Below, one piece after another: positions 7,005 to 47,046 of a stretch of 64,000 nt of DNA (its first letter is position 1; each line of letters begins with the position of its first letter). Location of the stretch: contig JAKQBN010000055.1 of assembly GCA_029559475.1 (NCBI GenBank), positions 92,031-156,030 of the forward strand, read 5' to 3'. Below the pieces are notes generated by a model. That model saw only the letters and a list, made by a program, of their open reading frames with translations. It did not search any database and was not told where the DNA came from. The stretch is from a bacterium. Lineage in GTDB: Bacteria > UBA4055. Made by a program: the position numbers and the translations under genes.

Positions 7005-8252
7005 ATGGCAGTACTGAGAAAATTTAAAGCCATAAGGCCGAAAAAGGGGCTTGAGGCGAAGATCGCCAGCTATCCCTACGACGTGATCAACAGCGAAGAG
7101 GCTAAAGAGATAGCAAAAGGCAACAAATATTCGTTTTTACACATCAACAAACCGGAGATCGATCTTCCTAAGGGGACTGACCTTTATTCTGATAAAGTTT
7201 ATCAGAAAGCGAAAGAGAATTTTCAATTATTTATGAAGGAAGGCTGGTTCATTCAGGATAAAGAGGAGCACCTATACATTTACCGCCAGACGATGGACGG
7301 AAGAGAGCAGTACGGGATAGTAGGTTGCTGCAGCGCGGAAGATTATTACAGTGATGTGATAAAAAAACACGAACACACAAGAAAAGCGAAAGAGGAAGAC
7401 AGGATCAAACACGTTGACGTTACCGGTATAAACGCAGGCCCGATATTTCTTACATATAAAGCGAGAAAATGCGTAAACGCAATGGTGGAAGAGATTGTAA
7501 AAGATAAACCTGTTTACGATTTCGTAGCAGAAGACGGTATAGGTCATACGGTATGGATCGTAAAAGACGAAAAACTGGCTGACAGGATCATAGCCAGGAT
7601 CAAGCTCACCAAGTATCTTTATATCGCTGACGGGCATCACAGGGCTGCTTCGGGCGCAATGGTGGCTAAAAGAAGACAGGCTAAGAACAAAAAGCATACA
7701 GGCAAAGAAGAATATAATTTCTTTATGTCGGTTCTTTTCCCTGACAATCAGCTTAAGATATTCGATTACAACAGGGTTCTTAAAAGCCTGAACGGGCATA
7801 CCGAGAAAGAGCTTTTCTCTTCGCTTGAAGGATTATTTAATATTACAAAAGCCGGTAAGGATGAATACAGACCGAAAAAGAAAGGCGAGATCGGAATGTA
7901 TTATAAAAAAAGCTGGTATAAGCTTGCGCTTAAAACAGGGATAAGGGACAATTCGGATCCGGTTAAATCATTAGATATTTCGATACTTCAGGATAAAATA
8001 CTTGATCCGTTCTTCGGAATTAAGGATCCCAGGACTTCGGACGATATCGATTTCGTCGGCGGCATCAGAGGTCTTAAAGAGCTGGTTAAACTTGTCGACA
8101 GCGGTAAATTCAAAGTCGCTTTCGCGATGTATCCGACATCTGTAAAAGAGCTGATGAAGATAGCCGATTCGGGAAAAGTAATGCCTCCAAAATCGACGTG
8201 GTTCGAGCCTAAATTAAGATCGGGGCTTTTAGTTCATGCGCTTGAAGATTAA
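7005..8252 (+). CDS. DUF1015-family protein
   Basis: 415 aa. N-terminus MAVLRKFKAIRPKK...ASYPYDVINSEEAKEIAKGNKYSFLHINKPEIDL matches my recollection of the DUF1015 family N-terminal consensus. No catalytic motif assigned. Confidence 0.5.
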   Translation: MAVLRKFKAIRPKKGLEAKIASYPYDVINSEEAKEIAKGNKYSFLHINKPEIDLPKGTDLYSDKVYQKAKENFQLFMKEGWFIQDKEEHLYIYRQTMDGREQYGIVGCCSAEDYYSDVIKKHEHTRKAKEEDRIKHVDVTGINAGPIFLTYKARKCVNAMVEEIVKDKPVYDFVAEDGIGHTVWIVKDEKLADRIIARIKLTKYLYIADGHHRAASGAMVAKRRQAKNKKHTGKEEYNFFMSVLFPDNQLKIFDYNRVLKSLNGHTEKELFSSLEGLFNITKAGKDEYRPKKKGEIGMYYKKSWYKLALKTGIRDNSDPVKSLDISILQDKILDPFFGIKDPRTSDDIDFVGGIRGLKELVKLVDSGKFKVAFAMYPTSVKELMKIADSGKVMPPKSTWFEPKLRSGLLVHALED

Positions 8253-18996: not shown

Positions 18997-19115
18997 TTCT
19001 TGCGAAAGTGACCAGTCAATTCCTGTCAAAGTGTTACAGATAATCTGATATAAAATAAAAGTTTTCCACTTCAAGAACTCCTATTATATTCGCTCCGAAC
19101 AAAAGAGGAGCGGAT

Positions 19116-20747
19116 ATGTCAAACAGGAGGCTTGATATGATAAATGTTCAACACCTGATACGGCAACTGGCTGAAGGCAAGTCGTATCGGGTAATAGGCA
19201 CAAATCTGGCGATATCGCCGACAACTGTCAAGAAATATGCGAAGTATATCAGAAAGAACGGTCTTAATGTCGAAGAGCTTAAGGGAAAACCGCCATCCGA
19301 GCTGGAGACTATTATAGACATAGCGGATCCTGCAGAAAGGCAACGAGCGGAAGAAGCTTTAACATGTATCAGGAAACATGAAAGTTCTTTGGTTGCAAGG
19401 CGGCTGACACGAAAAGATGTCTATGAAAAATATAGAATAGATATAGAATCTCCTCTAAGCTACAGCCGTTTCTGCGTAAAAGTAGAAGATGAACTTAAGA
19501 AAAGCGGCGCAACAATGCACTTTAATCACAAGCCAGGCGACAAGCTGTTCGTTGACTTTGCCGGAGACAAGCTGTGTTATTATGAAAAAGAGACAGGCGA
19601 GAAGATATCTGTTGAGGTCTTTGTGGCTGTTCTCGGACACAGTCAGAAGACCTTTGTCTTTGCGGTACATAGCCAGTGTAAAAACGATTTTATAGAGTCA
19701 CTTAAGCGTGCGTTCGAATACTACGGAGGTATACCATGCGCGATAGTACCGGACAATCTGAAATCAGGCGTAAATAAAGCAAGCTTATATGAACCTGAAA
19801 TGAACAGGAGCTTCAAACACTTTTGTGAACATTACGGCTGTTTTGCTTATCCCGCAAGGCCGCGTTCTCCAAAAGACAAGAGCCTTGTCGAGAATGCCGT
19901 AGGCAGAATGTACAGAGACATTTACACGCACATAAAAGCCTGTAAATACTACTCGATGGAAGAGTTGAATGCGGCTATACTTGAAAAGCTTGAAGAATCG
20001 AACAATAAACCGTTCCAGCGTCGTGATTACAGCAGAAATGATCTTTTTGAAAGTAATGAAAAGGACTGCCTTAAGCCGTTGCCTTCAAACGAATATGAGA
20101 CAGTAGATTTTTACAGTGCCACAGTCAGGCGCGATTATCATATCTGGTTCAGGCCTGACAAGCACCAGTACAGCGTACCTTATGAATACATAGGCAAAAC
20201 ATTAAAAGTTATTTACAATACAGATACCGTAGAGATATTTTACGGATACACAAGAATAGCCTTGCATAAGAGAAACAGATCAAGATACGGCTTTACCACA
20301 AACCCTGAACATATGCCGGCAAATCATAAATACATGGCTGATCTTACTCCTGAAAATCTGATGAAGAAAGCTGAAGAAATAGGCGTTTATACATCATCTG
20401 TAATCGAAAAAATACTCGGATCAGGCAACTATTATGATCAGAGAATAAGAAGCTCAAGAGGAGTACTGTCGCTTGCAAATAAGCTCGGAAAAGAAATTAT
20501 GGAACAGTGCTGTAAACGGGCTTTATCATACGGTATTTATAATTACAGACAGCTAAGAAACATAGCGGATATGAAGCTGTATCTTGAAGAAGATATAACC
20601 GTAACCGGCGGGTATATAGACAACCATCAAAACAAGAGAGGTGTTGAATATTATTTTGCGACACTTTTACAGGAATCGTGTGACACTTTGACAAGAATCA
20701 GCTACAATAATACAGAAATACAAACGAAAACGGAGGCGGAATGTTAA
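19116..20747 (+). CDS. istA: IS21-family transposase IstA
   Basis: 543 aa. N-terminal HTH (SYRVIGTNLAISPTTVKKY) and a DDE integrase core (FVDFAG...CAIVPDNLKSG...ENAVGRMYRD...) typical of IstA. Confidence 0.85.
   Translation: MSNRRLDMINVQHLIRQLAEGKSYRVIGTNLAISPTTVKKYAKYIRKNGLNVEELKGKPPSELETIIDIADPAERQRAEEALTCIRKHESSLVARRLTRKDVYEKYRIDIESPLSYSRFCVKVEDELKKSGATMHFNHKPGDKLFVDFAGDKLCYYEKETGEKISVEVFVAVLGHSQKTFVFAVHSQCKNDFIESLKRAFEYYGGIPCAIVPDNLKSGVNKASLYEPEMNRSFKHFCEHYGCFAYPARPRSPKDKSLVENAVGRMYRDIYTHIKACKYYSMEELNAAILEKLEESNNKPFQRRDYSRNDLFESNEKDCLKPLPSNEYETVDFYSATVRRDYHIWFRPDKHQYSVPYEYIGKTLKVIYNTDTVEIFYGYTRIALHKRNRSRYGFTTNPEHMPANHKYMADLTPENLMKKAEEIGVYTSSVIEKILGSGNYYDQRIRSSRGVLSLANKLGKEIMEQCCKRALSYGIYNYRQLRNIADMKLYLEEDITVTGGYIDNHQNKRGVEYYFATLLQESCDTLTRISYNNTEIQTKTEAEC
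20659..20698 (+). repeat. internal copy of the IS21 right-end double repeat, inside the istA 3' coding region
   Basis: gcgacacttttacaggaatcgtgtgacactttgacaagaatca is near-identical to the right terminus ctgtgacactttaaacaggaatcagtgggacactttgacaagaat. Confidence 0.6.
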
Positions 20748-21493
20748 ACGAAAATACATTGTCAAAAATGAAAGAGATGAACCTGACAGGAATGTATGAT
20801 GCATTTAAGCTAACTCTTAGCCTGAATGACTATAAGAAAATGACTTGCGATCAGCTAGCGGCATCTCTTGTTGACGCAGAATACGATAACAGGCGAAACA
20901 AAAGACTTGCCCAAAGGTTAAGTACAGCTAAGTTGCGTTATCCGGCATCAGCTGAACAGGTTGACTTTAATGCGGATAGAAAGCTCGATAGAAACCTGTT
21001 CATGAGACTTACAGACTGCAACTACATCAGACAGGCTGAGAATGTTATAATCAGCGGTATGACGGGCACAGGTAAAAGCTATATAGCCTGCGCATTAGGA
21101 CATCAGGCTTGTATAGCAGGATATAAAGTTATATATCACAACTTCAACAAACTCATGGCTAAGCTAGTAATGTCAAGAGGAGACAACTCGTATCTAAAGG
21201 AAATAAATAAGATAGCCGGCTACGATCTTTTAATCATAGATGACTTCGGCCTACAAACAATGGATCATGCCTCAAACATATCACTCCTTGAAATACTCGA
21301 AGACCGCTACGGCTCGAAATCTACGGTCATAGCTTCTCAGATCCCGCCTGAAAACTGGTATGCTCTCTTCAATAGCTCAACTATAGCTGATGCCTGCTTA
21401 GACAGAATAATACATAATGCGCATAAAATGGATATTACAGGGGAATCTATGAGAAAGAATAAAAAGGTTGCAGCGAAGAAAAAGAATGGTTAA
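20741..21493 (+). CDS. istB: IS21-family helper ATPase IstB
   Basis: 250 aa. Walker A GMTGTGKSY, Walker B LLIIDDFG. Overlaps the istA end by 7 nt, as is typical for IS21. Confidence 0.9.
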   Translation: MLNENTLSKMKEMNLTGMYDAFKLTLSLNDYKKMTCDQLAASLVDAEYDNRRNKRLAQRLSTAKLRYPASAEQVDFNADRKLDRNLFMRLTDCNYIRQAENVIISGMTGTGKSYIACALGHQACIAGYKVIYHNFNKLMAKLVMSRGDNSYLKEINKIAGYDLLIIDDFGLQTMDHASNISLLEILEDRYGSKSTVIASQIPPENWYALFNSSTIADACLDRIIHNAHKMDITGESMRKNKKVAAKKKNG

Positions 21494-21529
21494 ATTTTAA
21501 CGGGTTCAGGAGGTGGAAACTGTGACACT

Positions 21530-23323
21530 TTAAACAGGAATCAGTGGGACACTTTGACAAGAATCTACACCTGTATAATTCTGGCTGGTTTGAGAAGTGC
21601 TAACATTTGAGTAGGATCGCTGGCTTGGGCTAAAAGTATAACTCGATTTACTCGGAGTTATAACTCCTGTCCAGATATCTGTTGGAACAGATAATGAATA
21701 ATCACCGTTTGAATCTGTTGTTGTTGATACTATTCCATTGGTTCCTGATAACGTTACACCGCTTATTGTTGCGCCTGAGCTGTTTGTGATCCTGCCTGAA
21801 ATTACATTTGATGATTCACTAAAATTTAATTTAAAAGAATACGGAAAAGCGAATGTGTTTGCTGTGGCAGTTCCTATGATTTTTAAATAAATGTCACTGT
21901 TGTATAACAAAGAATATGAGAACTGAATGTTAGTGCTAAATGTACCGAATTTAACTTGAACTAGGCTGCCATTATTATTCTCATATAAATAGTACGTATT
22001 CACACCTGAAGCGTTTGGATAAAGATTGACGGTGACACTACCTGGTTTGTTATTGATATATCTATACATATCTTGATCTGATGAACCGCCTCCTGATTGA
22101 ATAGTTACTGATCCATTATATTCTATATTGTTGCTTATCGTATATGCCAATTCTTTAGTTGATGGTTCATCCATTCCTCGGATTAAATGACGGTAAGCGT
22201 CACATTCATCATTATGCTCTAAATTTACATTTAAAGTGTCAGATATATTCAAAGGTACAATATTACCAGTTTCATTTCTTAAATACTGGCGACTATATAA
22301 AACACAGCCATCACCAGGATCTTGAGGAATTGGATTCAACCAGTTCGCTGGGTTCTCACCATCATGTGAATTAGAAGCTATCCAAGTATACCGAATATTT
22401 GGTGGTAATGGCATATTAGTATTATAACTAAACGAAGCACTACTTAAGTTGAGACCGACAATGTTCGAATTAATAGCACTATCGCAGTTGATGTCCCTAT
22501 TAAAATAATCATCCAATGAACTAGACCATTCTTTACCACCAAATAGATAAATTCCGTCTGCGCCAGCATCAAAAGAATATTTCAAATCTCGCATAGCTTC
22601 AGAATGTATATTTGGTGGTGTTTCAGATTTCTGATCGTAATACTTTGTATTAGAAGGATCGAATCCTGAGTTTGATCCAAGATGAGGTGTCCCTATAGTA
22701 ACTACTCGTGCAACTTTGTGTCCGTTTATGTTATCAGAAGGATTTACCCACCACTTATGATTAGTGCTTGTTGTACCGTCTATTGTTCTTTGGAGATATT
22801 CTCTTATAGCAAGGCCACCCATAGAATGCCCAACTAGTATTACTTTCTCCGAGTTCGTAAAATCGATTACTTCAGTTATCATTTTACTTAACGCATATCC
22901 CTGCTTAAAAATCGCCGATTCATTGCTATGGTCAAACTGATCATTCCACCACCCATCTGCTGCCTTTATTCTTTCTTCTTTGAAATTGATCGCAAAAATA
23001 TAAGAATCTGGATCCCAATCATACAAACTATAATTAAATCTTCGTGGTCCAAGTATTATTGTTTTATCACCATATACTGTATCAGACCATTTGACATCGT
23101 TTTCGAGCACAGAAGTATCGTTAGCATTATCGAAATTTAGTATAACATCATATGAATTTATGTTTCCCCAATCGTAATTACCACTATTCAAATAATTCAT
23201 CGTTTCTTGAAATGACTCATCGCTACCGACTAGTCCGTGAACGAAAATAATAGGATATGGAGGTTTTGCTCCATAAATTAATGTTGTTAACACGATAATG
23301 AGAATCAACAATATTTTCTTCAT
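21530..23323 (-). CDS. secreted lipase/esterase (alpha/beta hydrolase, PGAP1-like) with a C-terminal carboxypeptidase-regulatory-like domain. The C-terminus is supplied by the IS21 end.
   Basis: Signal peptide MKKILLILIIVLTTLIYGA. Nucleophile elbow ILVGHSMGGLAIREY. C-terminal ITNSSGATISGVTLSG...TTDSNGDYSLSVP is CarbopepD_reg-like. The last 11 codons (DSCQSVPLIPV*) are encoded by the IS21 right terminal repeat. Confidence 0.7.
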   Translation of the reverse strand: MKKILLILIIVLTTLIYGAKPPYPIIFVHGLVGSDESFQETMNYLNSGNYDWGNINSYDVILNFDNANDTSVLENDVKWSDTVYGDKTIILGPRRFNYSLYDWDPDSYIFAINFKEERIKAADGWWNDQFDHSNESAIFKQGYALSKMITEVIDFTNSEKVILVGHSMGGLAIREYLQRTIDGTTSTNHKWWVNPSDNINGHKVARVVTIGTPHLGSNSGFDPSNTKYYDQKSETPPNIHSEAMRDLKYSFDAGADGIYLFGGKEWSSSLDDYFNRDINCDSAINSNIVGLNLSSASFSYNTNMPLPPNIRYTWIASNSHDGENPANWLNPIPQDPGDGCVLYSRQYLRNETGNIVPLNISDTLNVNLEHNDECDAYRHLIRGMDEPSTKELAYTISNNIEYNGSVTIQSGGGSSDQDMYRYINNKPGSVTVNLYPNASGVNTYYLYENNNGSLVQVKFGTFSTNIQFSYSLLYNSDIYLKIIGTATANTFAFPYSFKLNFSESSNVISGRITNSSGATISGVTLSGTNGIVSTTTDSNGDYSLSVPTDIWTGVITPSKSSYTFSPSQRSYSNVSTSQTSQNYTGVDSCQSVPLIPV

Positions 23324-23528
23324 TTTCCCCTCTCCTTACTCTTGTATTTAATTTTTTTAATTTTTGATATATCAATGTTATAAAAAACTTGTGCTTATAA
23401 TCCGTACTTCTTCTATACATTTCTTACTTTCTCAAACTTATAATAATTTAATTTAACATTTCTCAGTTATCTGTTTCAACTGTTTCCGTATTATTTTTTA
23501 TTTTTTCCATTTTTAGCTTCGATTTTTG

Positions 23529-24854
23529 TTATATGAACTGATGTCTGTGTTCGGGATATACTAGAGATGGGGTACTGATCTGTCGGATCATCTGGTCGGC
23601 CTGAGCCTTTATTTCATGATAGCCGTTCTTTTGTGCCAGCTCGATGGACTTTTTGTAACATTCAACAGCTTTTTCAGTATTATAAAGTTCTTTTACGATC
23701 AGTCCGCAGTTCAGGTAGAATAATGCTAAAGCTTTTTCGTCATTGAGCGATGATACAATGCTGTGCGCCTTATTTAAATGATAGATAGAATTTTTACTGT
23801 CCTTAATGATCCTGTGACAGTCCGAATAGAGCATATATATCTGGTATCTGTACAGGTTCTGTCTGTCGGCCGGCAGAGAACGGATCCTGAGTAAAGCGGA
23901 TTTTAAAAGGTATTTTGTCGTCTCGGAATTGCTTCGGATGATCGATATCTTTGATCTTTTGATTATGGCATTTATCAGCAGCTCATCATCGGATCCTGAA
24001 CCTTCAAGAATGTGGATCAGTTTCTCGCAGATATTGTCTGAAGTCTCGTGATTTTTATTCTTTCTGTGCTGGACCGCGGCGCTGTACTTTGCTTTAAGAT
24101 CGCTTATCGTTTTTTCAGTATCGAAAAAATTCCCGCAGTCATACACGATGTCTGAATGCATGGTCATGTTGACTTTTTTTATAAAACTTTTGAATTTATT
24201 TGATTTTAACGCGGATCTTTCCAGAATTATCTGATTGTTCAAAGAGACCGTAGCCAACGAATCGAAAAGGAAATCACAGATGTTCTCGTATCTTGTCCTT
24301 TCTTTTAAATAATTATATTTTTTTAGGGAAAAATTAACATATTTTCTTATCTCTTTATAATGTTTCAGAATAAATTCTATATCTTTGTATCTGCTTCTAT
24401 CAACATCGAATATTTCGCAGGATTTATCTATAAATAGCCTTTTTATTCTGATCCCCGATCTTTTGCAGTCTGAAATGAATTGAGCTATGAACTGACTTAG
24501 GATCCGTTTTTCTTTTACGGGCGAATATGCGCAGAATACAAATCCGTGATTAATGTCTTTTATGAGATATCTGAATACAGGTTTTTCTTTTTGCAGCGGA
24601 TACAGTTCCGATACTTTTAATACAAGTTCTGAAAGCGGACTGCCGTTAGCCTTATAATTATCGTTTCCGTCTTCTTTTTTCTTTTGACTTTTATTCTTTG
24701 AAAGAAGACCGTTCTTTTGTGAGTTGATCCAGTTTCTTATTGTTCGCGGAGTTATCCCGTGAATTTCTGCAAGTTTTTTTATTTTTTTTCTGCTCGTAGC
24801 CTGTTTTATAACTTTCAGCTTTTCCTCGACGGACTTACGCATAATAATGCTCAT
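23529..24854 (-). CDS. HTH-domain + TPR-repeat protein (paralog A). Its transposase-like N-terminal region is speculative.
   Basis: 441 aa. N-terminal HTH KLKVIKQATSRKKIKKLAEIHGITPRTIRNWI. Central region conserved with the upstream paralog (FRYLIKDINHGFVFCAYS, YENICDFLFDS). C-terminal TPR-like helical repeats. Confidence 0.55.
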   Translation of the reverse strand: MSIIMRKSVEEKLKVIKQATSRKKIKKLAEIHGITPRTIRNWINSQKNGLLSKNKSQKKKEDGNDNYKANGSPLSELVLKVSELYPLQKEKPVFRYLIKDINHGFVFCAYSPVKEKRILSQFIAQFISDCKRSGIRIKRLFIDKSCEIFDVDRSRYKDIEFILKHYKEIRKYVNFSLKKYNYLKERTRYENICDFLFDSLATVSLNNQIILERSALKSNKFKSFIKKVNMTMHSDIVYDCGNFFDTEKTISDLKAKYSAAVQHRKNKNHETSDNICEKLIHILEGSGSDDELLINAIIKRSKISIIRSNSETTKYLLKSALLRIRSLPADRQNLYRYQIYMLYSDCHRIIKDSKNSIYHLNKAHSIVSSLNDEKALALFYLNCGLIVKELYNTEKAVECYKKSIELAQKNGYHEIKAQADQMIRQISTPSLVYPEHRHQFI

Positions 24855-24978
24855 TTTAATTTTCGGTTAATGTTTTATAAGCAAAATTTAATGCATAAAA
24901 AAGCTGAATTCAATTATTGCCGGATATTTTTATATTTTTTCCGTTTTTAGCTATGTTTTTAAAAATATGAAATAACTT

Positions 24979-27096
24979 TTATACCTGATGCAACTCTAAT
25001 TGTTTTTTCACAAAGTACATCTGTTCTTCAGTATCGTATAATTTACTTTTTAGCAGTTCCTGCAGATAAATTTTATAAGCTTCTTTTTTGTTCGTCTTAT
25101 AAAAATCAGACTTTTTTTCTAATATTACTGAAGAATAAGCATAGAATTCATTTGAATCTGAATCTGCTTTCTTATTAAGGATTTTTAAATTCGCTTTTGC
25201 CTTTTTAAAATCTCCGGACTCTATGTGCAGTTCGATTAATACCGTCAAAGCTTTGAGATAAGGGAATGGATTTCCTTTTGTTGTCTTTGCTATTTCTATT
25301 GCTGATAATATTTCCGATTCAGCCTTTACGAACTTTTTTTCAATTTTTGAGATCATTCCGTTATATAAAGGCAAATTATACTTCTGTGAAGTATTATCCG
25401 TATTCTCCAAGAGCAGAGAAACCTCGGACAATCTGCTTTTTACATCGGAAATTCGTCCTGATTCAATTTCAGACAGACACAAATTCAGCATATTATCTAT
25501 AAGCGGTACTTTCAGGTTGTTTTTTTGCGATAATTCAATATTGTCTTCAAATATTTTCCCGGCTTTTAGAAATTCATTCATTTTTATATACGCCACGGCT
25601 TTGTTGCCCGATACAGGGATTCGAATGGTGGTCAGCACAGCAGGATTATCTGATCTGTCAATAATTTCAACGGACTTATCATAAGCTTTAATGCTTTCCG
25701 ATAATTTTCCCGCGATCTGAAGACAGTCTCCGTATTTTGCCCATAGAACTACTTTCTGAACGAACATGTTTTTATATAGATCATCGGCTATCATTTTTTC
25801 GTATAATTTTATTGCTTCTGAAGTATTACCTCTTTTTACGTTGTAATCAGCTTTATTCTCTTTTACCGCAAGAAGGATGTCGTCGAATTTATTCTTCTCG
25901 GCTAATACTTCGGACTTGAGTAAGAATTCTTCAGCTTTATCAAATGTACCTGTATTCTTATAAAATAGGGAATAATTTATGTAAAATATTGCCTTGTTCC
26001 TTTCATTGCTGTCTGCTTCAACTTGTCGTCTTGCTTTTTCAAAGAAATAAAGGCACTTTCTGTTTTCGTTTGTCAGTCTGTAAACATCCGCGTAAAGCAT
26101 ATAGCCTGCATACTTAAACCCGCTTATTTTATCAGCCGGAAGTAATTTCGCCATTTTCATAGCCTTCGAAAAGTATTTTCTTGCATTAACCATATCTTTT
26201 TTTAATGCATAGACCTTCCCTATCTGGATCAGTATTTTTGCGTACAGTTCCGAATAAGATCCCGAATCTTTTAAGATCACTTCTATCCTTCTGTAACGGT
26301 CATCCGAATTCACAAGATCGAATTTTTTATGGATTTCGAGAGCCTGATCGAACATTTTTGTCAGTATTTCGCCTGATCTGCTTTCGTCAAAGCTTTTAAC
26401 TTCATCGGAAAGAATAGCCGAATGATACTTTATGTTCAGCTTTTTTACAGATTCGAAACATTTGGAAGATTTTACAGCCTTATATTTTTCTAATGCTGTA
26501 TGATTGTTTTTTGCTGTCGTAGCCATAGAATCAAATAAAAATTCATTATTGTTTTCGTATTTTGTTCTTTCTTTCATAAAACTATTGTGCTTTGTTGTAA
26601 AAGTCAGATGTTTTTTGATCGAAGTGTTGTTAACGCAGGTCAGTATTGTGCCTGTAGATTTTAGATCACTAACATGATTTCTTTTATCTGTAATAATTTT
26701 CTTTACTGTTATTCCTGATTTTTTCAGGTCTGAAAGAAAGAGATTTAAAATTTCTTTGAAATATCCGTTAGAGTTGTCGGATGAATACGCGCATAGAATA
26801 AATCCGCGGTTTATATCTTTTAAAAGATGCCTGTAAACAGTTTGATCTTTCAGAACAGAATATACAAGTGAAACTTTATAAACCGATTCGCTGAAAGGTC
26901 CTGATATTTTTTTACTCTTTTGAGGACTTTTCGGATCAGGATCCTTTTTGCCGTTAAGTTCGCCTGCTTTGTAAAGCGCGATCCAGTTCTTTATGGTTTT
27001 TTCGGTAATCCCGTGCTGGATGGCGAGTTTCTTTATCAGCTTTTTACTTTTCGCCTGTTTTACGATCTCTAATTTCTCGATCAATGATCTGGTCAT
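24979..27096 (-). CDS. HTH-domain + extended TPR-repeat protein (paralog B)
   Basis: 705 aa. N-terminal ~230 aa are paralogous to 23529-24854 (KLEIVKQAKSKKLIKKLAIQHGITEKTIKNWI, YRHLLKDINRGFILCAYS, YENNNEFLFDS). These are followed by ~450 aa of TPR-like repeats. Confidence 0.55.
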   Translation of the reverse strand: MTRSLIEKLEIVKQAKSKKLIKKLAIQHGITEKTIKNWIALYKAGELNGKKDPDPKSPQKSKKISGPFSESVYKVSLVYSVLKDQTVYRHLLKDINRGFILCAYSSDNSNGYFKEILNLFLSDLKKSGITVKKIITDKRNHVSDLKSTGTILTCVNNTSIKKHLTFTTKHNSFMKERTKYENNNEFLFDSMATTAKNNHTALEKYKAVKSSKCFESVKKLNIKYHSAILSDEVKSFDESRSGEILTKMFDQALEIHKKFDLVNSDDRYRRIEVILKDSGSYSELYAKILIQIGKVYALKKDMVNARKYFSKAMKMAKLLPADKISGFKYAGYMLYADVYRLTNENRKCLYFFEKARRQVEADSNERNKAIFYINYSLFYKNTGTFDKAEEFLLKSEVLAEKNKFDDILLAVKENKADYNVKRGNTSEAIKLYEKMIADDLYKNMFVQKVVLWAKYGDCLQIAGKLSESIKAYDKSVEIIDRSDNPAVLTTIRIPVSGNKAVAYIKMNEFLKAGKIFEDNIELSQKNNLKVPLIDNMLNLCLSEIESGRISDVKSRLSEVSLLLENTDNTSQKYNLPLYNGMISKIEKKFVKAESEILSAIEIAKTTKGNPFPYLKALTVLIELHIESGDFKKAKANLKILNKKADSDSNEFYAYSSVILEKKSDFYKTNKKEAYKIYLQELLKSKLYDTEEQMYFVKKQLELHQV

Positions 27097-27235
27097 ACAT
27101 AACCCCTCTTAATTTATTACTTTTCGCCAATATCGTTTTACATCACTTTTAGTGATAATTTATAAAAGACTGAATGAATAATCAAGATATATTAAACGTG
27201 ATCGATAAATCAGCGGAGTTGAAATAATCTTAAAA

Positions 27236-27270
27236 TAAAAAAGGCAGTACATAATTACTGCCTTTTTATT
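27236..27270. terminator. bidirectional rho-independent terminator
   Basis: aaaaaaggcagtac-ataat-tactgcctttttatt: a 7-bp stem (ggcagta/tactgcc) with an A-tract upstream and a T-tract downstream, just 3' of the VWA lipoprotein gene. Confidence 0.6.
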
Positions 27271-27303
27271 CAAAACCGGAATACCCGGTCATGTTCTTCA
27301 GAT

Positions 27304-28482
27304 CTAGTAATTAGCTTTGACTGTTACTTCCCCGTCCGAAGTTCCTATATCGATCACTATACGAATATCTTTTTCCGTGCCGTCAGTTTTAGATGTTTCA
27401 AATTCAACAAGCGAAGATGCTGCTGTGACTTCAACAATCGGAAGTGTAGTAAGATCAACATATCCTGTATAATCACCTGCTCCGAAAATATCGAACCACA
27501 TTCCTCCTGTTCCGGCAGATGTATATGAAATTTCATTCAGAATTAAATTTCCCGGTTGAGCCAGCCAGTGCATATCGTAAGCGCCATTTTCAAGATAAGT
27601 ATAATCTGGTGTCGGGGATACGACGTGGACGGTTGCATATCCTTCAAGAGCTGCCGCAAGTTCATCGGTTCGCCATGGAGAATGAGACGTTCCCGATCCG
27701 ACAGGAGCGCCTTCACCCCATGTGGATACATCTGTAAGGACTATGAACATTTTCTGCGCGCCTTCTCTCCATGTAAAATTGTTGTAAGCCCACCATATAG
27801 CATCAAATCCGCCTTCGGGGCTATCACCACCGTCATATCCTTCATAACCTGCATACAAGCTGTCAACGAATTTGTAAACCGGTCCTGTTGTATCGATCTT
27901 GGTAGTAATATTTTCATAGTCTACAACTACATAAGCTCCTGGATCATTATCGTCGGGTATTCCATTAATTTCAACAGGAATTCTCGAATCGTAATTATCT
28001 GCATATGCTACTGCTCCTGCTGCGACATTTATTCCTTCTGATTTCATGTTTTTTAAGAAATCAGTAACGCTGGCTCTGACACCGTCTATTGTTCCGCTCA
28101 TCGAACCTGTTACGTCGATTATAAAAACGATATCCGTTCCCAAAGAGATAGTGCCGTCGTTATTTGTAATTTTTATACCCTGAACTACTCCGTCTTCAAC
28201 CACTGTCAGGTTCTCGGTCGTGTAGATAATAGGATCACCTTTGCTTACATTTAAAAGTCCACCGACATTGAGTTTGACTCTTGTAGGATTAGACGGATCT
28301 ACTTTAACCGCTACGTTCGGTTTGAGCGGTCCGCTTTTTACTGCCGGTGGAAGAGTCCCCGGATCTGCAGGTATATCGGAATTATCAACTACTATCGGTT
28401 CCGACGATTTTTCATCACTACATGACCATATGAACATACCGGCTATGATAACTGCCAATGTTAAAAACTGCCATTTTTTCAT
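27304..28482 (-). CDS. von Willebrand factor A (VWA) domain lipoprotein
   Basis: Signal peptide with lipobox (FIWSCSDEK). MIDAS-like motif IVFIIDVTGSMSG. Predicted extracytoplasmic beta-rich N-terminal region. Confidence 0.65.
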   Translation of the reverse strand: MKKWQFLTLAVIIAGMFIWSCSDEKSSEPIVVDNSDIPADPGTLPPAVKSGPLKPNVAVKVDPSNPTRVKLNVGGLLNVSKGDPIIYTTENLTVVEDGVVQGIKITNNDGTISLGTDIVFIIDVTGSMSGTIDGVRASVTDFLKNMKSEGINVAAGAVAYADNYDSRIPVEINGIPDDNDPGAYVVVDYENITTKIDTTGPVYKFVDSLYAGYEGYDGGDSPEGGFDAIWWAYNNFTWREGAQKMFIVLTDVSTWGEGAPVGSGTSHSPWRTDELAAALEGYATVHVVSPTPDYTYLENGAYDMHWLAQPGNLILNEISYTSAGTGGMWFDIFGAGDYTGYVDLTTLPIVEVTAASSLVEFETSKTDGTEKDIRIVIDIGTSDGEVTVKANY

Positions 28483-28637
28483 TTCGTTTCTCCATTTTTG
28501 TTTTTCTTAGGATATTTACACTACTTTCCCAATTTAAAATAAACCAAAGTAATAATCAAGTAATAATTTACCTTATTATTCTGTAATTTATGCAGACATT
28601 TTTTTGGAGGATATCATGACGTGTAATTTCAAAAGAT

Positions 28638-30986
28638 CTATTTAAGCTCGATAACGGTGACCCCGTAATCACCTTCGCCGTACTCGCCGAATTTCTTGCG
28701 CTTGATATACGGACATTTTTCAAGATAATCATTGATCAGCTTTGATAGGATCCCCTGCCCTTTACCGTGAACGATCTCGCAGTAATTCATATTATGGAGC
28801 ATCATATTCTCGATATGCTTTTCAACAAGCATGACAGCCTCGTCTCCCCTCTTTCCTCTAAGATCGAGCCTTAATGAAACAGCGTTATCTTCAGACGGAC
28901 TGAATTTTATATTGACGTTCACATCCTCTTTTCTTTCCAGAACGTCAATAATGTCTGCCAGCTTGATCTTCATCTTAATGCTGCCTACAGTTACTTCGGC
29001 GTTCTTGCCCGAAACGCTTTCCACTATGCCTGAAGTTGAAAATCCGCCGATCTTGACTTCCATACCGGGTTTAATTTCACCATTATAGGTTTCTTTTTTC
29101 TTTTCGGGTTCTCTGGCTATCACTTCGATCTTCTTTTTTTCAGTCTCGATAGAACTTTTGACTTCCTTAACAACGGCTTTATCGGCTTTCGACGACCTGA
29201 TCTCGGCGACCGCGCTCTCGATCGCTCTGTTCGAATTATCGATTATATCCTGAGCTTTACGTGCGGCTTCCTTCAATATCTTCTTTTCGTTTTTCGAGAT
29301 CTCCTCGTACTTCCTGTTGTACATCTCCTTAAGTTCGTTAAGCTGCTGATTGACGCTCTTCGACTGCCTGAGAAGGTTATTGTAGCTGGTGATCTTTTCG
29401 TCAAGCTCGGATATCAACCCTTCGAGATCCTCTTTTTCGTTCGATAGATGCTTCCTTGCATTATCTATAATATACTGCGGAAGCCCGTGCCGTTTAGCTA
29501 TCTCGAAAGCATAGCTCGAACCCGGAACGCCCGATCTGAATTTATAAGTAGGAGTTATATTCTGCTTGTCGAACTCCATTGAGCCGTTCTCTACGCCCGG
29601 AGTTTTATAAGCGTAAGATTTAAGTACTCCCTGATGCGTTGTAGCCAGAGTGATATACTTTCTTTTTGTCAGCTCGGAAAGTACAGCCATCGACAGACTC
29701 GAACCTTCTGCAGGATCTGTTGATGCTCCGATCTCATCGAAAAGCACGAGTGTGTTTTTGCTTTTCGCTTTGAGTACTTTGGATATCTTGCTTATATGCG
29801 AGCTGAATGTCGAAAGATCGTTCTCTATCGACTGACCGTCACCGATATCTGTGAATATTTCATTGAACACCGCGACATTGGAATTACTCTGCGCGGGTAT
29901 GTGCATTCCGGCCTTGATCATAAGGCAGATAAGCCCGACGGTCTTTAATGCGACCGTTTTTCCACCCGCGTTCGGTCCCGTAATCACAAGAGTATTATAC
30001 TTTTCCCCTATCTCGAGGTCCAGAGGCACAACACCTTTCTCTCCGTGCGTATCCAACAGCAGCGGATGCCTGCCGTAATATATGTTGACAATATTTTTGT
30101 CGTTCACTTTAGGATGATGGCAATGATAATGAATGCTGAATTTAGCCTTGGAGTAAATCACATCGATCTCCGCGGAAATCTCAAGGTCGGTTAAAAGTTC
30201 ATTCTTAATATTGAATACTTTCGTCGAAAGCGCTCTTATTATCCTTTCAATCTCCTTTCTTTCCTGCCTGATCAGCTTCTCAAGCTCCGAATTAATCTCA
30301 ATCGCCTCGTACGGCTCAATAAAAACCGTACTCCCAGTCGCACTTTCGTCAATAACAACACCTCTGACCTTATTTCTTTTATCGGCTCTGACAGGTATGA
30401 CGAACCTTCCGTCCCTGATCGTGATCTCGCCGTCCCTCGTATATCCCGCCTGAGAATAAGCGTCGAGCATTTCAGAAGTCTTTTTCCTGAGTTTGTTCTG
30501 CGCAGTCTGTATCGAACTTCTTACCGATCTGAGTTCTTTCGATGCTGTATCAAGAACATTGCCTTCTTCACCGACCGCTTTAAAAATATCCTCTTCCACA
30601 TCTTCGAAAACCTCTATATCGCCGCAGATTTCATAAAGGAAAGGATATCTCTCCTTTTTTTCATGAAGATGAGAGAAAAGCCTTCTGAATACGGACATTG
30701 ACTCGGCTATCCTGTAGAGATCGGCGGGATCCATAAGCTGTTCCGGAGCGCTCAGGTTCTCAAGCGCTTCTTCTATGTCCCTCACCCCGCGTAACGGAAG
30801 CTCCGACTCGCTTAGAAGTTTCTTCATCTCGGTGACGAGATCCAGTGAAGATAGTATCACAGGCATTTCTTCTGAAAGTTCGAGAGAATCTATATAACTT
30901 TTACCCTTTCCGGTTACGGCGAGATCAATAAGTTTTTCTCTGATTTTATTGAACCCTAATGTTCTTTCTGAATTTATTACGTTCAT
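28638..30986 (-). CDS. mutS2: endonuclease MutS2 (MutS domain + C-terminal Smr)
   Basis: 782 aa. Walker A GPNAGGKTV, long coiled-coil linker, and a C-terminal Smr domain (LDLRGKRGDEAV...HGKGQG). Confidence 0.9.
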   Translation of the reverse strand: MNVINSERTLGFNKIREKLIDLAVTGKGKSYIDSLELSEEMPVILSSLDLVTEMKKLLSESELPLRGVRDIEEALENLSAPEQLMDPADLYRIAESMSVFRRLFSHLHEKKERYPFLYEICGDIEVFEDVEEDIFKAVGEEGNVLDTASKELRSVRSSIQTAQNKLRKKTSEMLDAYSQAGYTRDGEITIRDGRFVIPVRADKRNKVRGVVIDESATGSTVFIEPYEAIEINSELEKLIRQERKEIERIIRALSTKVFNIKNELLTDLEISAEIDVIYSKAKFSIHYHCHHPKVNDKNIVNIYYGRHPLLLDTHGEKGVVPLDLEIGEKYNTLVITGPNAGGKTVALKTVGLICLMIKAGMHIPAQSNSNVAVFNEIFTDIGDGQSIENDLSTFSSHISKISKVLKAKSKNTLVLFDEIGASTDPAEGSSLSMAVLSELTKRKYITLATTHQGVLKSYAYKTPGVENGSMEFDKQNITPTYKFRSGVPGSSYAFEIAKRHGLPQYIIDNARKHLSNEKEDLEGLISELDEKITSYNNLLRQSKSVNQQLNELKEMYNRKYEEISKNEKKILKEAARKAQDIIDNSNRAIESAVAEIRSSKADKAVVKEVKSSIETEKKKIEVIAREPEKKKETYNGEIKPGMEVKIGGFSTSGIVESVSGKNAEVTVGSIKMKIKLADIIDVLERKEDVNVNIKFSPSEDNAVSLRLDLRGKRGDEAVMLVEKHIENMMLHNMNYCEIVHGKGQGILSKLINDYLEKCPYIKRKKFGEYGEGDYGVTVIELK

Positions 30987-31143: not shown

Positions 31144-34100
31144 ATGAAGAGAATATTAATTTGGGCTCTGTCGGTTATGTTATTCATCCCGGCAGCTGCG
31201 TTTTCGCAGTTCGCGGGAGGAGACGGATCGTCAGGGAATCCGTATCAGGTTTCTACTGCTGCTGAACTCAATAACGTAAGAAATTATCTCACATCTTACT
31301 TTATCCAGACAGCCGACATTCAGCTTGGTGAATCACCCTGGAATCAGGGAGAGGGATGGAATCCTATAGGTACGAACTCTACGAGCTTTCAGGGTAACTA
31401 TAACGGAGGCAATTACAAGATCCTGAACCTGACTATAAACAGGGGTCTTACTAACTATGTCGGCATTTTCGGATACTGCAGCAGCGCAACTCTGCAGAAC
31501 ATAGTCATTCAGTCTCCGAACATCACAGCGTACACAGCCATCGGGCCACTAGTGGGATACGCTTTAAACAGCTACATTTCGAACTGCGCGGTCATAGGAG
31601 GCGGCAGTATATCCGGTGAAAATTACGTCGGAGGTTTAGCAGGATGGATCGTTGGATCTAACATCTATTCAAGCTATACATACATAAACGTATTCGGTTT
31701 TGAAAGGATAGGCGGGATGGTGGGAAGGTGCGATACTAATTCCAACATCGCGAACTCTTATTCCAGATCATATGTTTCGGCATCCAACGATTACGCCGGA
31801 GGTTTCGCGGGGTACTGCCTGCAGACAACTGTAGCGAACAGCTATTCCTCCGGTTATGTTGACTGCGTAGGGTCAGTCAAAGGCGGATTCATTGCGTATA
31901 ATACTGTTACTGCTAACATTACTGAATGCTATTGGGATACCGAAGCAAGCGGTCAGACTTCTTCTCCGGGCGGAGGTACAGGAAAAACAACAGCCGAAAT
32001 GAAATCTCAGACAACTTTCTCAGCATGGGATTTTTCAACACCGGTATGGAAAATATATTCGTCCGTAAACGACGGATATCCTTATCTTGCATGGGGTGAC
32101 TGGCCCGGCATACTAACTACTATCGCCAGCCCGTCTGAGGGAGGTTCTGTTACCACCGGAGGAGCTTATGAAGAGGGGACGCCGGTATGGCTAGAAGCTT
32201 CACCGACAGCTCCCTATTATCAGTTCAAAAACTGGACGGATAATACATCGGCCGTCATTTCGACCGATCCGAACTTCGTATATTATATGCCGGAAGGAGA
32301 TATGACCCTGACGGCGAAATTCGAAAAATATTTTTCTGAAGTCAGCGCCGGATTTAGAGATGTTGCGGAAAGCACAACAAGCTGGTGCGATTATGATAAC
32401 GACGGCGATCTTGATGTTCTTGTTGTCGGCTGGAACGGCGCATCAAGCAAAGTTGCAGAAAGAGTTGCAAAAATTTACAGAAACGACGGCGGTGAAGTTT
32501 TTACAGATATAAATGCCGGTCTGATTCCGGTTAGATATTCATCTTGTGCCTGGGGTGATTATGATAACGACGGTCTTCTCGATCTGGTAGTTTCCGGTTG
32601 GGAGAGTTCGTTAGTAAGTACAAGAATTTATAAAAACTACGGTAGTGATCAATTCTATGATGTTGGTGCCGGATTACCCGGGATCAATTCAGGTTCTGTC
32701 GCATGGTCGGATTACGATAATGACGGCGATCTCGATCTCACTCTAAGCGGATGGTGCCCTTCGCAGGGACATAATATTACGAACATTTATAAAAACACGA
32801 ACGGCAGCTTTACCGATATAAGCGCAGGTTTAACAGGGTTGCAGTACAGCTCGATAGCATGGGCGGATTACGACAATGACGGCGATCCTGATCTGCTGAC
32901 AACAGGATTAACTGACGGTTCGACGACACTGACCGTTCTCTACAATAACAATAACGGTATTTTTACAGATGCCGGAATAGGCCTTCATAATCTTCATAAC
33001 GGATCAGTTGCGTGGGGTGATTATGATAACGATGGCGATCCTGATATACTTCTGACGGGCCAGGAAACAGGTGGAAAACAATATACTGAGATATACAGGA
33101 ACGATTTAACAGGTTTTACAGATATAGACGCCGCTACCGATTATGCGTCATGGAGTTCTGCAGCATGGTGCGATATCGATAACGACGGAATACTTGATAT
33201 CATTGTTACCGGAAAAAATCCTGATGAAATTAAAATAGCGAAAGTTTATAACATTTTCAGTGATACAGTTTATGAAAAAACAAATATCGCATTCGAAGGA
33301 GTACACTGGGGATCTATTGGATGCGGTGATTATGACAATGACGGGGACTCAGATATTATTATTTCGGGGTACGACAGCATAGAACATGCTGTAACAAAAC
33401 TTTACAGAAATAACCACCACCCGGTTAATACTCCGCCTTCAGCTCCTGCCAATCTTGCTTGGACGCTGTTCGACAATGATGTTACTTTATCATGGGACAG
33501 GTCGACAGACAGCCAGACTTATGATATGGGTCTGACATACAACATCTATGTCGGTTCATCGCCTGCGAACGGAAATACGAAAAGCTCAATGAGCGATAAT
33601 TCTACCGGTTTCAGAAAAGTAGTGCAGCTCGGAAATGCGGGTCAGCTTAACTCTTATACAATTAAGGACCTTCCGCTGGGAACATACTACTGGAGCGTCC
33701 AGGCGATTGATCCGTCCTATAAAGGCTCTCTTTTTGCGACCGAAGGTACATTTGTCGTAAGTTCATTCACCGAAATGACGACATCGCTCCCCGGTCTCGG
33801 GAATAGTTATAATTCATGGGGAGACTACGATAACGACGGCGATCTTGACGTTATTGTTTCCGGAACGACCGGAACAGCCAGACTTACTGAAATATTCAGG
33901 AATGACGGCGGAGGAACTTTTACCGATATCGACGCCGGTATTGTGAATGTATGGTACAGCGCTTCAGCCTGGGGCGATTATGATAACGACGGAGATCTAG
34001 ACCTCGTAATTTCCGGACACACAGGCTCGGTAAGAACTGCTAATATCTACATGAATGATTCAGGCGTATTTACCGATATCGGCGCAGGACTTCCCGGAGT

Positions 34101-45777: not shown

Positions 45778-47046
45778 CTAATTATCTACAGTTGTTTTAA
45801 AAATCTCCTTTTTGCTTCTCAAGAACATCCAGCATAAACCAATGAGAACAACTACTACACCAGCACTGACGATAAAGCCTGCCCTTCCGCCCCAGGCTCC
45901 CGAAACAGATCCGGCAAACAGATTTCCGATCGGAGTTACCCCTCCGAAGACCATAGTGTAAACGCTCATAACTCTTCCTCTGAACTGAGGATCAGAATTC
46001 AGTTGAAGCGTGGAATTTACTGATGTAAAGAACATTATATTGGATATTCCCAAGAGTATAAGAAATGACGAAGCTGTATAGAAATTCGAAGATAAACCTA
46101 TAAGGATCATCGCAAAACTTATTGAATAAGGCATGGCTGCTATCAGAAATTTCTGATTCAGTTTATGGGAATAAACAGCAACGGTTAATGCGCCGATGAC
46201 GGATCCGATTCCCAGAGCGGACAATAAAAAACCGAACCCTTGTGCTTCGGTTTTAAGGACGGTTTTTGCAAAAACAGGTATTATAACATTAAAATTTATC
46301 GCAAAAGTTGATACTATCGCCACGAAAAGAAGAGGCCGGAAAAGAATCGCTTTACTTCTTATATAGGCCAGGCCTTCCTTAATCTCTTTCATCACGGTTT
46401 GCCTTACTACGGCTGTTTCCTCTTTCCTGATCTTCAGATTTTTGATCATGTGAACCGTTACTATAACAGCCATAAAAGACAGCGCATTGAACAGAAAGCA
46501 GAATCCTATTCCGAAATTAGCTATCAGTATCCCTCCGACTGCCGGCCCGATGATCCTGGCCAGGTTAAAAGTGACCGAATTAAGCGCGATTGCGCTTGTC
46601 AGGTGGGTTTTACCTACTAGTTCTATCATAAATGACTGCCGCGTGGGCATATCGAGCGTATTAACGAAACCTAGTATGATCACGATCACCGCTATATGCC
46701 AGAACTGAACGGCTCCGCTGAGAACAAGTATAGTAAGCAGAAGCGCAAGTACCATTGATACCGTCTGTGTAACAAGTATTATCTTTTTTTTAGGGAACCT
46801 GTCCAGATAAACTCCCGCCACCAGCGAAAAAAGCATTACAGGTGTGAACTGAAGCGCTCCGATAAGTCCCAGTAGAAAGGGAGACTTCGTGAGTTCATAA
46901 ACAAGCCATGCCTGAGCTGTGGTCTGCATCCATGTGCCGGAAAGAGAAATGCCCTGTCCATACCAGAAAAGTCTGTAATTCCTGTGCCTGAAAGCAGGAA
47001 ATGTTTTCTTGATAAAATATGGTATTGCTTTTAAGCGGTACTTCAT
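45778..47046 (-). CDS. MFS transporter (EntS/MFS_3-like efflux family)
   Basis: 422 aa with ~12 predicted TM helices. MFS-type loop motifs (GVYLDRFPKKK). Confidence 0.75.
   Translation of the reverse strand: MKYRLKAIPYFIKKTFPAFRHRNYRLFWYGQGISLSGTWMQTTAQAWLVYELTKSPFLLGLIGALQFTPVMLFSLVAGVYLDRFPKKKIILVTQTVSMVLALLLTILVLSGAVQFWHIAVIVIILGFVNTLDMPTRQSFMIELVGKTHLTSAIALNSVTFNLARIIGPAVGGILIANFGIGFCFLFNALSFMAVIVTVHMIKNLKIRKEETAVVRQTVMKEIKEGLAYIRSKAILFRPLLFVAIVSTFAINFNVIIPVFAKTVLKTEAQGFGFLLSALGIGSVIGALTVAVYSHKLNQKFLIAAMPYSISFAMILIGLSSNFYTASSFLILLGISNIMFFTSVNSTLQLNSDPQFRGRVMSVYTMVFGGVTPIGNLFAGSVSGAWGGRAGFIVSAGVVVVLIGLCWMFLRSKKEIFKTTVDN

Follow-up and report, generated by a model that had tools for sequence, protein, structure and literature searches.

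Tandem helix-turn-helix–TPR genes with a predicted integrase-type core and an operator-like element behind each gene

A tandem pair of paralogs

Within a 64,000-nucleotide stretch of a bacterial genome (GenBank assembly GCA_029559475.1, contig JAKQBN010000055.1, positions 92,031 to 156,030; hereafter the window, numbered from its first letter), two adjacent minus-strand genes encode paralogous proteins, one long and one short, that join an N-terminal helix-turn-helix (HTH) to a central block of predicted integrase-type fold and a C-terminal array of tetratricopeptide repeats (TPRs). A reading made from the window's letters alone (the sequence-only reading) had taken the pair for a recent tandem duplication and had proposed a domesticated transposase fused to TPR scaffolds. 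Here the pair is examined together with related loci (L numbers) and family proteins (P numbers), and the reading that we come to favor is one of old, transposase-derived regulators acting on the genes that follow them. The two genes and their parts are laid out as follows.

24979..27096, minus strand: long paralog, 705 aa (open reading frame, ORF)
26962-27096, minus strand: HTH of the long paralog, aa 1-45
26419-26895, minus strand: predicted integrase-fold core of the long paralog, aa ~68-226
24982-26385, minus strand: TPR superhelix of the long paralog, about 24 helices, aa 238-705
23529..24854, minus strand: short paralog, 441 aa counted from the first ATG (ORF)
24842, minus strand: probable start of the short paralog, giving 437 aa
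24708-24842, minus strand: HTH of the short paralog, aa 1-45 (437-aa numbering)
24147-24635, minus strand: predicted integrase-fold core of the short paralog, aa ~70-232 (437-aa numbering)
23532-24110, minus strand: short TPR part of the short paralog, aa ~245-437 (437-aa numbering)

The methionine at position 5 of the short ORF (MRKS..., 437 aa) is the start in the database copies and in all orthologs, and residue numbers follow the 437-aa version of the short paralog. That the neighbors are paralogs was confirmed by BLASTP (36% identity over 414 aa, E 2e-70). They had been described as sharing an N-terminal module of ~230 aa; the sharing holds, with about 40% identity between long and short over the N-module alone, but the length was set too small, as the similarity extends past the module into the first TPR helices.

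The proposed transposase-type HTH was also upheld. Pfam HTH_28 matches both proteins at aa ~7-53 over its gathering cut-off of 25 (29.2 and 29.5 bits), HTH_23 reaches 25.7 bits in the short protein (cut-off 24.6), and HTH_Tnp_1 is matched by both HTHs. The N-termini match those of IS3/IS481 transposases weakly in NCBIfam, far under the cut-offs, and in PHROGs only the HTH is matched (PHROG 151, transposase). Both proteins thus appear from these matches to carry an HTH of the transposase type, placed N-terminal to the core as in IS3/IS481 transposases. At the other end, the long protein matches TPR_12 (54.2 bits, cut-off 30.1) and TPR_2 (34.4 bits, cut-off 27), and the short protein, which reaches 23.0 bits for TPR_12, under the cut-off, aligns with the long protein through aa 415; TPR_MalT-like repeats are among the Pfam matches in the C-terminal parts. 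No nucleoside triphosphatase domain (NACHT, NB-ARC, or MalT) precedes the TPRs, and the proteins are in this respect not of the STAND/MalT type. The PADLOC defense-system families gave no match and the PHROGs matches were restricted to the HTH, and assignment to a defense-system or phage protein family was rejected.

A conserved element at the 3' end of most family genes

The similarity of the 3' flanks, which had been noticed from the letters, is real. A direct repeat of 63 nt, 76% identical, links 23475-23537 with 24909-24971, and its 20-nt core AGCTAAAAAYGGAAAAAATA occurs in 2 copies in the window against 0.06 expected. Each repeat is joined to a promoter-like part.

24886..24971, minus strand: element after the long gene, core TAGCTAAAAACGGAA at 24939-24953
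24908-24913 and 24886-24891, minus strand: promoter-like part of this element, with a -35-like TTGAAT, a 16-nt spacer, and a -10-like TTAAAT, respectively
23450..23537, minus strand: element after the short gene, core AAGCTAAAAATGGAA at 23505-23519
23474-23479 and 23451-23456, minus strand: promoter-like part of this element, with a -35-like TTGAAA and a -10-like TTAAAT, respectively

The element after the long gene has an A/T-rich spacer and a second GG 21 nt past the first, and differs little from that of the L016 ortholog. The element after the short gene is kept in L001, together with the 5' leader, ahead of a different cargo gene, and a promoter scan independently lists TTGAAA-18-TAAATT at 23479..23450.

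When both strands of 208 kb (the window plus 15 loci) were searched for AGCT[AG]AA.{1,5}GG[AG]AA, 21 matches (12 distinct) were returned, every one of them at the 3' end of a family gene; a back-of-envelope estimate of the chance expectation is about 0.6. The motif also stands behind members only ~30% identical to the window proteins (L006, L009, L013, and L014). For most family genes it begins 0-35 nt past the stop codon, and in five loci it takes in the stop codon, the frame differing among them: the TAG of TAGCT serves as the stop codon in L009, L013, and L014, the TAA or TGA of AGCTRA in L004 and L012. The universal core is TAGCTRAA-N3-GGAA with TTYR before it, and TTnnTAGCTAnnAA therefore forms an imperfect dyad; the second GG, exactly 21 nt past the first, is confined to closer relatives. 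About 39-40 nt after the core follows a -35-like hexamer (TTGAAA or TTGAAT), and 16-18 nt beyond that a -10-like hexamer (TTAAAT or TATATT). Scored against the sigma70 consensus, the sequences after the motif average 8.58/12, as compared with 7.52+-0.23 in shuffles, for which the maximum of 500 was 8.25. These data point to an arrangement in which each family gene is followed by an operator-like site and this site lies upstream of a promoter reading into the next gene, such that 24886..24971 is a proposed operator and promoter for the short paralog and 23450..23537 a proposed operator and promoter for the lipase gene that comes next.

Other accounts of the flank were tried and rejected. RNAalifold on the 12 instances yielded 0 pairs, which speaks against a structured RNA, and Rfam returned no match in window 21000-29000 at E<=1. 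A 15-codon ORF, MEKIKNNTETVETDN, overlaps the motif after the short gene and has a matching ORF in L001; the copies after long genes lack a start codon, and the conservation therefore lies at the DNA level and not in a flank-encoded peptide. A sigma-54 promoter was dismissed on its spacing, as GG and TTG are 10 nt apart, not 12.

Several further observations concern the same sequences. A third match to TAGCTRAANNNGGAA with one mismatch (TAGCTAATTTCGGAA) lies at window 46509-46523 on the minus strand, inside a 422-aa ORF (45778..47046), and is at chance level (0.86 expected at one mismatch). At 23223-23420 on the minus strand, about 20-30 nt past the point where transcription from the lipase promoter is predicted to begin, a small ORF opens whose first ~19 codons are conserved in L001 (5835-5930; window MYRRSTDYKHKFFITLIYQ.., L001 MFRNRMNVKYKFYIALIFQ..). 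The two sequences compared differ at several third positions, and the ORF could encode a leader peptide or merely be conserved leader DNA. In L018 (2084-2384), a short paralog 85% identical to that of the window is found with motif, promoter, and cargo absent; homology to the window stops a few bases past the stop codon, and beyond this point lie a terminator-like hairpin and a small ORF in convergent orientation. Single-copy family genes, for their part, have a conserved promoter 5' of the gene (L006 ~7850-7900, L007 ~5870-5910, L009 ~5930-5970, and L014 ~5890-5930), ATTGAC(T/A)TTTGTC(A/G)TAT...TATAxT, that is, TTGAC(T/A)-N17-TATAxT, with the -35 inside a TGAC-N4-GTCA palindrome that could be an autoregulatory or other operator. 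Judged by its sequences, the lineage uses canonical promoters.

The central block: a predicted RNase H-like fold

The blocks that the sequence-only reading had picked out between HTH and TPRs are genuinely conserved. They are kept across the family, and R91, Y106, Y185, D194, and S195 within them are invariant across 17 sequences, as are N203 and H229 further downstream. The invariant polar residues R91, Y106, D194, S195, N203, and H229 indicate a strongly constrained surface or pocket.

In an AlphaFold2 model of residues 1-235 built from a 17-sequence alignment (predicted local distance difference test, pLDDT, 81.8), three HTH helices and a disordered linker (51-62) lead into a core composed of β72-84, β87-96, β102-107, α112-128, β135-139, α146-151, β156-160, α162-168, α188-209, and α215-230. 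A second model, of the full 705 aa and from another alignment of 11 sequences (pLDDT 87.2), has the same topology, β1β2β3-α1-β4-α-β5-α, and Foldseek concurs with an integrase-type fold (E ~1e-5, probability 1.00). The loop 169-187 and parts of the central domain are at pLDDT about 55-70. The central block is accordingly predicted, with good confidence, to adopt the integrase/DDE-transposase (RNase H-like) fold, whose absence would have refuted the suggestion of a transposase origin. The profile link to rve or DDE families that would have been its counterpart in sequence did not materialize, with Pfam, PDB profile, hhalign, and HMMER searches all negative: in Pfam at E<=1, residues ~60-240 of the full proteins are without any match, and a PDB profile search of the central block returned nothing meaningful and no integrase.

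The catalytic residues were mapped by secondary-structure register and by spacing against the IS3/rve consensus, so that the assignments below are in part tentative. The block (I/T)D139 right after β4 we take to be the equivalent of the second catalytic Asp; it is D in 15/17 members, N in P0013, and A in P0016. The block Y-E/D186-N-x-x-D/E190-F at the start of α4 is presumably the counterpart of the 'DNAxxESFF' block with the catalytic Glu, and an acid is present at 186 and 190 in all members. KD96-x3-G, at the β2/β3 turn, we equate with the non-catalytic 'iDxxSR' block of rve, and position 96 is Val in P0014. On the IS3/rve spacing, the first catalytic Asp would be expected mid-β1, at about position 78, 18 residues ahead of D96. 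This column holds S, T, I, F, or V, position 76 is a near-conserved Lys, and no conserved acid is found in β1, where a Glu at position 79 occurs in the short-paralog clade only. The rve-like layout seen in the blocks thus stands insofar as their secondary-structure positions agree with those of the rve blocks, and falls insofar as the KD aspartate sits at the β2/β3 turn and β1 is without a conserved acid. By this mapping no member has the first Asp of the DDE triad; the triad appears to be incomplete, and catalysis by the integrase-fold domain has therefore probably been lost. The domain may now serve as a dimerization or ligand-binding module.

The TPR domain

In the AlphaFold2 model of the long protein, about 24 helices at 238-704 form an all-helical superhelix. 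Among bacterial structures it is best matched by NprR, Rap, and PlcR, and a PDB profile search with the TPR part gave RapJ (E 4e-7). Small proteins with an N-terminal hydrophobic segment are encoded 3' of the family gene in L006, L009, and L004, and the conserved small ORF at 23420 in the window is without a signal peptide.

Age of the duplication and the wider family

The duplication is not recent, contrary to what had been proposed. In a neighbor-joining tree of N-modules, the short copies form one clade and their long partners another, with identical species order in the two, and from this parallel branching it follows that the duplication predates these species. The proteins are now only 36% identical and neutral DNA would long have been randomized, so the flank is best explained as under selection; the similarity of the flanks, once taken as the trace of recent copying, appears to be a selected cis element, not leftover duplicated DNA. 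The long and short genes recur as a pair in other genomes, where the gene behind them varies, as the following loci illustrate.

L001/L003: polA, long, short, immunoglobulin (Ig)-repeat protein
L004/L005: long, 244-aa short, five small secreted proteins, C39-like peptidase
L012: long, 244-aa short, 391-aa protein, 803-aa protein
L016: MutS2, VWA (von Willebrand factor A), long, short, in the same order as in the window

In two species the short copy consists of the N-module only (244 aa, no TPR). In L014/L015 (6001-8148), a single-copy gene is split into a 233-aa HTH and integrase-fold protein and a 469-aa TPR protein, the parts lying 37 nt apart on contigs from two sources (ENA and JGI); the split may be natural or a shared frameshift, and the motif is found only behind the 469-aa TPR protein.

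Comparison of the long gene with an 89%-identical ortholog gave proportions of nonsynonymous and synonymous differences (pN/pS) of 0.055/0.275 overall, about 0.2, with 0.031/0.176 in the central domain and 0.071/0.349 in the TPR part; by these ratios, both parts are under purifying selection. Window 26893-27310 and L016 6560-6975 are 100% identical from 210 nt ahead of the long gene through its first ~68 codons. Beyond codon ~68 the two diverge, with synonymous differences of 0.18 in the core and 0.35 in the TPR part, a mosaic that suggests a recombination breakpoint inside the long gene.

The genes occur as single copies or a fixed pair in conserved chromosomal synteny, often among housekeeping genes: between SLT-LysM and rpsO/mreBCD in L006 and L014, with SLT-LysM upstream in L009; after polA in L001, L003, L007, and L008; and after MutS2-VWA in the window and L016. 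In the loci examined, the motif has no inverted counterpart upstream of family genes, and a left-end inverted repeat was not found. All of this indicates that the family is not mobile. It is also tiny, with about 15 cluster representatives among 1.84 billion proteins, and one scan each of genome and metagenome contigs added L010 and L011 alone. Where the source names a taxon it is Candidatus Delongbacteria, and two entries are labeled Clostridiales.

Neighboring genes and variable cargo

The pair was said to lie between a secreted VWA lipoprotein and a secreted lipase. Both neighbors are as described, each with an N-terminal hydrophobic segment (ORFs and Pfam).

27304..28482: gene of the VWA protein, with N-terminal hydrophobic segment and Cys, the upstream neighbor
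27238..27267, minus strand: terminator-like hairpin after the VWA gene, a 12-bp stem followed by a T run
21530..23323, minus strand: lipase-like alpha/beta-hydrolase, 597 aa, with N-terminal hydrophobic segment (ORF)

The hairpin, identical in L016, is a probable upstream boundary of the unit, and nothing ties the VWA gene to the long/short pair. Downstream, there is no terminator-like site between the long, short, and lipase genes. The lipase-like protein matches PGAP1, DUF915, DUF676, Lipase_2, and Abhydrolase_1 in Pfam. An IS21-family element occupies window 19019-21564 (istA 19116..20747, istB 20741..21493), with inverted repeats at 19019-19034 and 21549-21564 as its boundaries. The lipase gene (stop at 21530) runs into the right end of this element with its last ~11 codons; the present lipase C-terminus (..DSCQSVPLIPV) is therefore encoded by insertion-sequence (IS) DNA, and the native C-terminus may have been lost. 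On the far side of the VWA gene, just past MutS2, window 31144-37212 on the plus strand encodes a 2022-aa protein with an N-terminal hydrophobic segment, composed mostly of repeated 'WGDYDNDGDLD' units resembling FG-GAP/VCBS repeats with Ig-like segments between them.

The cargo, that is, the genes found behind the family genes, varies among loci.

L001: Kre9_KNH Ig-repeat protein, with promoter and leader otherwise conserved ahead of it
L013: C10 peptidase with Spi prodomain
L009: 93-aa protein, then C25 peptidase
L006: 94-aa protein, 48% identical to the 93-aa L009 protein
L004: five ~110-aa paralogs and a C39-like peptidase

The recognizable downstream genes mostly encode hydrolases, peptidases, Ig-repeat surface proteins, or small N-terminally hydrophobic proteins. 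In L004 (8680-12249) and also in L005, the five tandem paralogs (~107-116 aa) lie 3' of the 244-aa short paralog and each run from an N-terminal hydrophobic segment through a GG-acidic stretch to a C-terminal hydrophobic segment; next come a Peptidase_C39-like protein of 201 aa and a protein of 396 aa without a Pfam match, and the cluster looks like one for peptide or surface-protein processing. Across the loci, a unit of regulator and predicted promoter appears to be retained while the cargo gene varies.

A proposed regulatory cascade and its rivals

The reading that we favor, at a rough probability of 0.55, is that the window holds an old tandem pair of transposase-derived regulators working as a cascade from the long paralog to the short paralog to the lipase. 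The HTH would bind the TTYR-TAGCTRAA-N3-GGAA site that follows the stop codon of its own gene. It would probably do so as a dimer, kept together by the integrase-fold domain; integrase cores are known to dimerize. The center of the bound site would lie about 70 bp ahead of the start point, a typical position for class I activators, and an A/T-rich, UP-like stretch would separate it from the -35. A peptide or protein ligand of the TPR domain would set the activity of the bound protein, which in the right ligand state would switch on the next gene. In the window this would amount to a cascade or feed-forward chain: the long protein would act on the promoter of the short gene, and the promoter of the secreted lipase would in turn be driven by the short protein, either by itself or in a heteromer with its long partner. 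Regulation of the lipase by the pair is plausible, given the gene order and the promoter-like element.

A number of results weigh against this proposal. The homology to integrases would rest on predicted structure from shallow alignments (11-17 sequences): none of 13 central blocks matched an rve or DDE family in Pfam at E<=10, and hhalign assigned a probability of <1% both to the IstA of the window's IS21 element and to an IS21 core profile of 113 sequences. An exhaustive HMMER search of 1.84 billion cluster representatives with a 13-sequence block profile found no transposase; of the 15 proteins at E<=0.001, 13 were family members, and the other two, very long proteins with several short matched stretches, were taken as spurious, unchecked. 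Retention of the second Asp (15/17 members) and of the acid at the start of α4 (all members) counts against a dead core, and the invariant R91, Y106, D194, S195, N203, and H229 could make a working site. The TPR likeness is generic, with eukaryotic TPR proteins scoring equal to NprR, and a candidate signaling peptide was not established, none being obvious in the window. As for the cis element, binding of the motif by the proteins is suggested by their co-location, a good -35 at fixed distance follows in only about 7/12 motif instances, and neither P0013 (L007) nor the short paralog of L018 is followed by the motif. The earlier suggestion of a domesticated transposase fused to TPRs therefore gains from the predicted fold and the type of HTH, and lacks a sequence-level link to rve by any method tried.

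Of the other explanations, the most probable, though still unlikely, holds that the motif is a promoter/UP-type element or is recognized by another factor (an alternative sigma factor, for instance), that it accompanies the family genes through shared ancestry alone, and that the proteins act elsewhere. The A/T-rich stretch resembles an UP element, the conserved GGAA-N16-GG spacing is limited to closer relatives, and an extracytoplasmic function (ECF) sigma gene lies near the pair in L004. Set against these points, the core is invariant beside proteins that are ~30% identical while the remaining intergenic DNA has diverged, the motif occurs nowhere else in the 208 kb, and it persists through changes of cargo, the pattern expected of a regulator and its own operator. 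A rather unlikely account, in turn, accepts the regulators and denies them a transposase past: they would be ordinary HTH-TPR proteins, the middle a lineage-specific alpha/beta dimerization domain, and the integrase-like model a case of convergence or an artefact of prediction from shallow alignments. The failure of sequence and profile methods to detect rve or DDE, the small alignments, and the low-scoring loop 169-187 and other parts of the domain speak for this account; the agreement of the two models and Foldseek on the fold speaks against it. It is improbable that the domain is instead an active nuclease or recombinase and the proteins TPR-gated effectors (defensive or toxin-like) or site-specific DNA-processing enzymes. 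D139, the acids at 186 and 190, the D194-S195, N203, H229, R91, and Y106 set, and the Glu 79 that the short-paralog clade alone has in β1 would suit such an enzyme, but long paralogs have no conserved acid at the β1 position, D96 is replaced by V in P0014 and D139 by N or A in P0013 and P0016, PADLOC finds nothing, several members sit in housekeeping synteny, and the promoter-like element suits regulation better.

Two further explanations derive the site itself from a transposon. According to the first, which we consider quite doubtful, the conserved site is the surviving right end of the ancestral transposon, still bound by its now immobile transposase, and the locus is an integron-like platform for secreted cargo: integrase-fold gene, site, and promoter would form the platform, behind which different secreted-protein genes are exchanged. 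The site would carry an outward-facing promoter, as many IS ends do, and in the strongest form of this idea the integrase-fold domain would keep a DNA-processing or synapsis activity there. The difference in cargo among close relatives with conserved promoter and leader, the break in L018 homology right after the stop codon, and the retention of D139 and the acids at the start of α4 all fit. The second, that the proteins are transposases of an undescribed IS family and the motif is the right transposon end, is very improbable and largely refuted. An HTH followed by an integrase fold, a conserved sequence at or overlapping the stop codon, where IS right ends often lie, and an outward-facing -35-like hexamer are as it would have them; the lack of a matching inverted repeat upstream, the single copies or fixed pair in conserved synteny, the 470-aa TPR fusion, and the incomplete catalytic triad are not, and about 15 cluster representatives in 1.84 billion are the opposite of a spreading element. 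Returning to the cascade of transposase-derived regulators, function beyond the fold prediction rests on inference, and interest is tempered by the tiny family.

Comparison with known systems

The family shares its predicted fold with the IS3/IS481-type DDE transposases and retroviral integrases (rve, PF00665), but differs from these in having no detectable sequence similarity, in missing the first catalytic Asp (as mapped) with the second not invariant, and in its stable synteny and C-terminal TPR fusion in place of inverted repeats and multicopy spread. It looks derived from an IS3/IS481-like transposase and by sequence falls outside rve. With the RRNPP regulators (NprR, PlcR, Rap, and AimR) it has in common a DNA-binding head on a TPR superhelix, a regulator gene adjoining its proposed targets, and secreted downstream products. 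RRNPP proteins join an XRE-type HTH directly to the TPRs and belong to Firmicutes and their phages, whereas the present family, from Candidatus Delongbacteria, has an HTH of the HTH_28/HTH_Tnp_1 type set apart from the TPRs by about 160 aa of integrase-fold domain, and no gene for a cognate propeptide was identified. The family would therefore resemble RRNPP or other HTH-TPR regulators in its working while standing outside RRNPP.

The nearest bacterial parallel for the change of function is TldR, a group of TnpB-like nuclease-dead repressors in which a transposon nuclease was turned into a transcription factor, catalysis was lost, and the gene is encoded beside its targets; TldRs, which are unrelated in fold, come from the RuvC-type, RNA-guided TnpB and find their sites by a guide RNA (PMC10705468). 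The present family, by contrast, would stem from a DDE/integrase-type enzyme and bind DNA through a protein HTH. A literature search disclosed no bacterial regulator with an integrase/DDE-fold core, nor an rve-fold example fused to a TPR sensor.

If the favored reading is true, a transposase has kept its DNA-binding head, a decayed core, and possibly its own end sequence, and has gained a TPR sensor to become a signal-responsive activator of secreted hydrolases. The system is compact, with a 15-nt site, a promoter, and a natural 'N-module only' member of 244 aa (P0005), and would offer a first functional handle on genes annotated 'helix-turn-helix domain-containing' or 'TPR repeat protein' in an uncultured phylum. 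The domestication of transposases into DNA-binding host factors is well documented in eukaryotes, where CENP-B, FHY3/FAR1, and GIN-1 are domesticated transposases or integrases acting as DNA-binding factors. Like them, the present proteins would combine a DNA-binding domain with a decayed core maintained by purifying selection for a host function; those factors are eukaryotic, whereas the family described here is bacterial.

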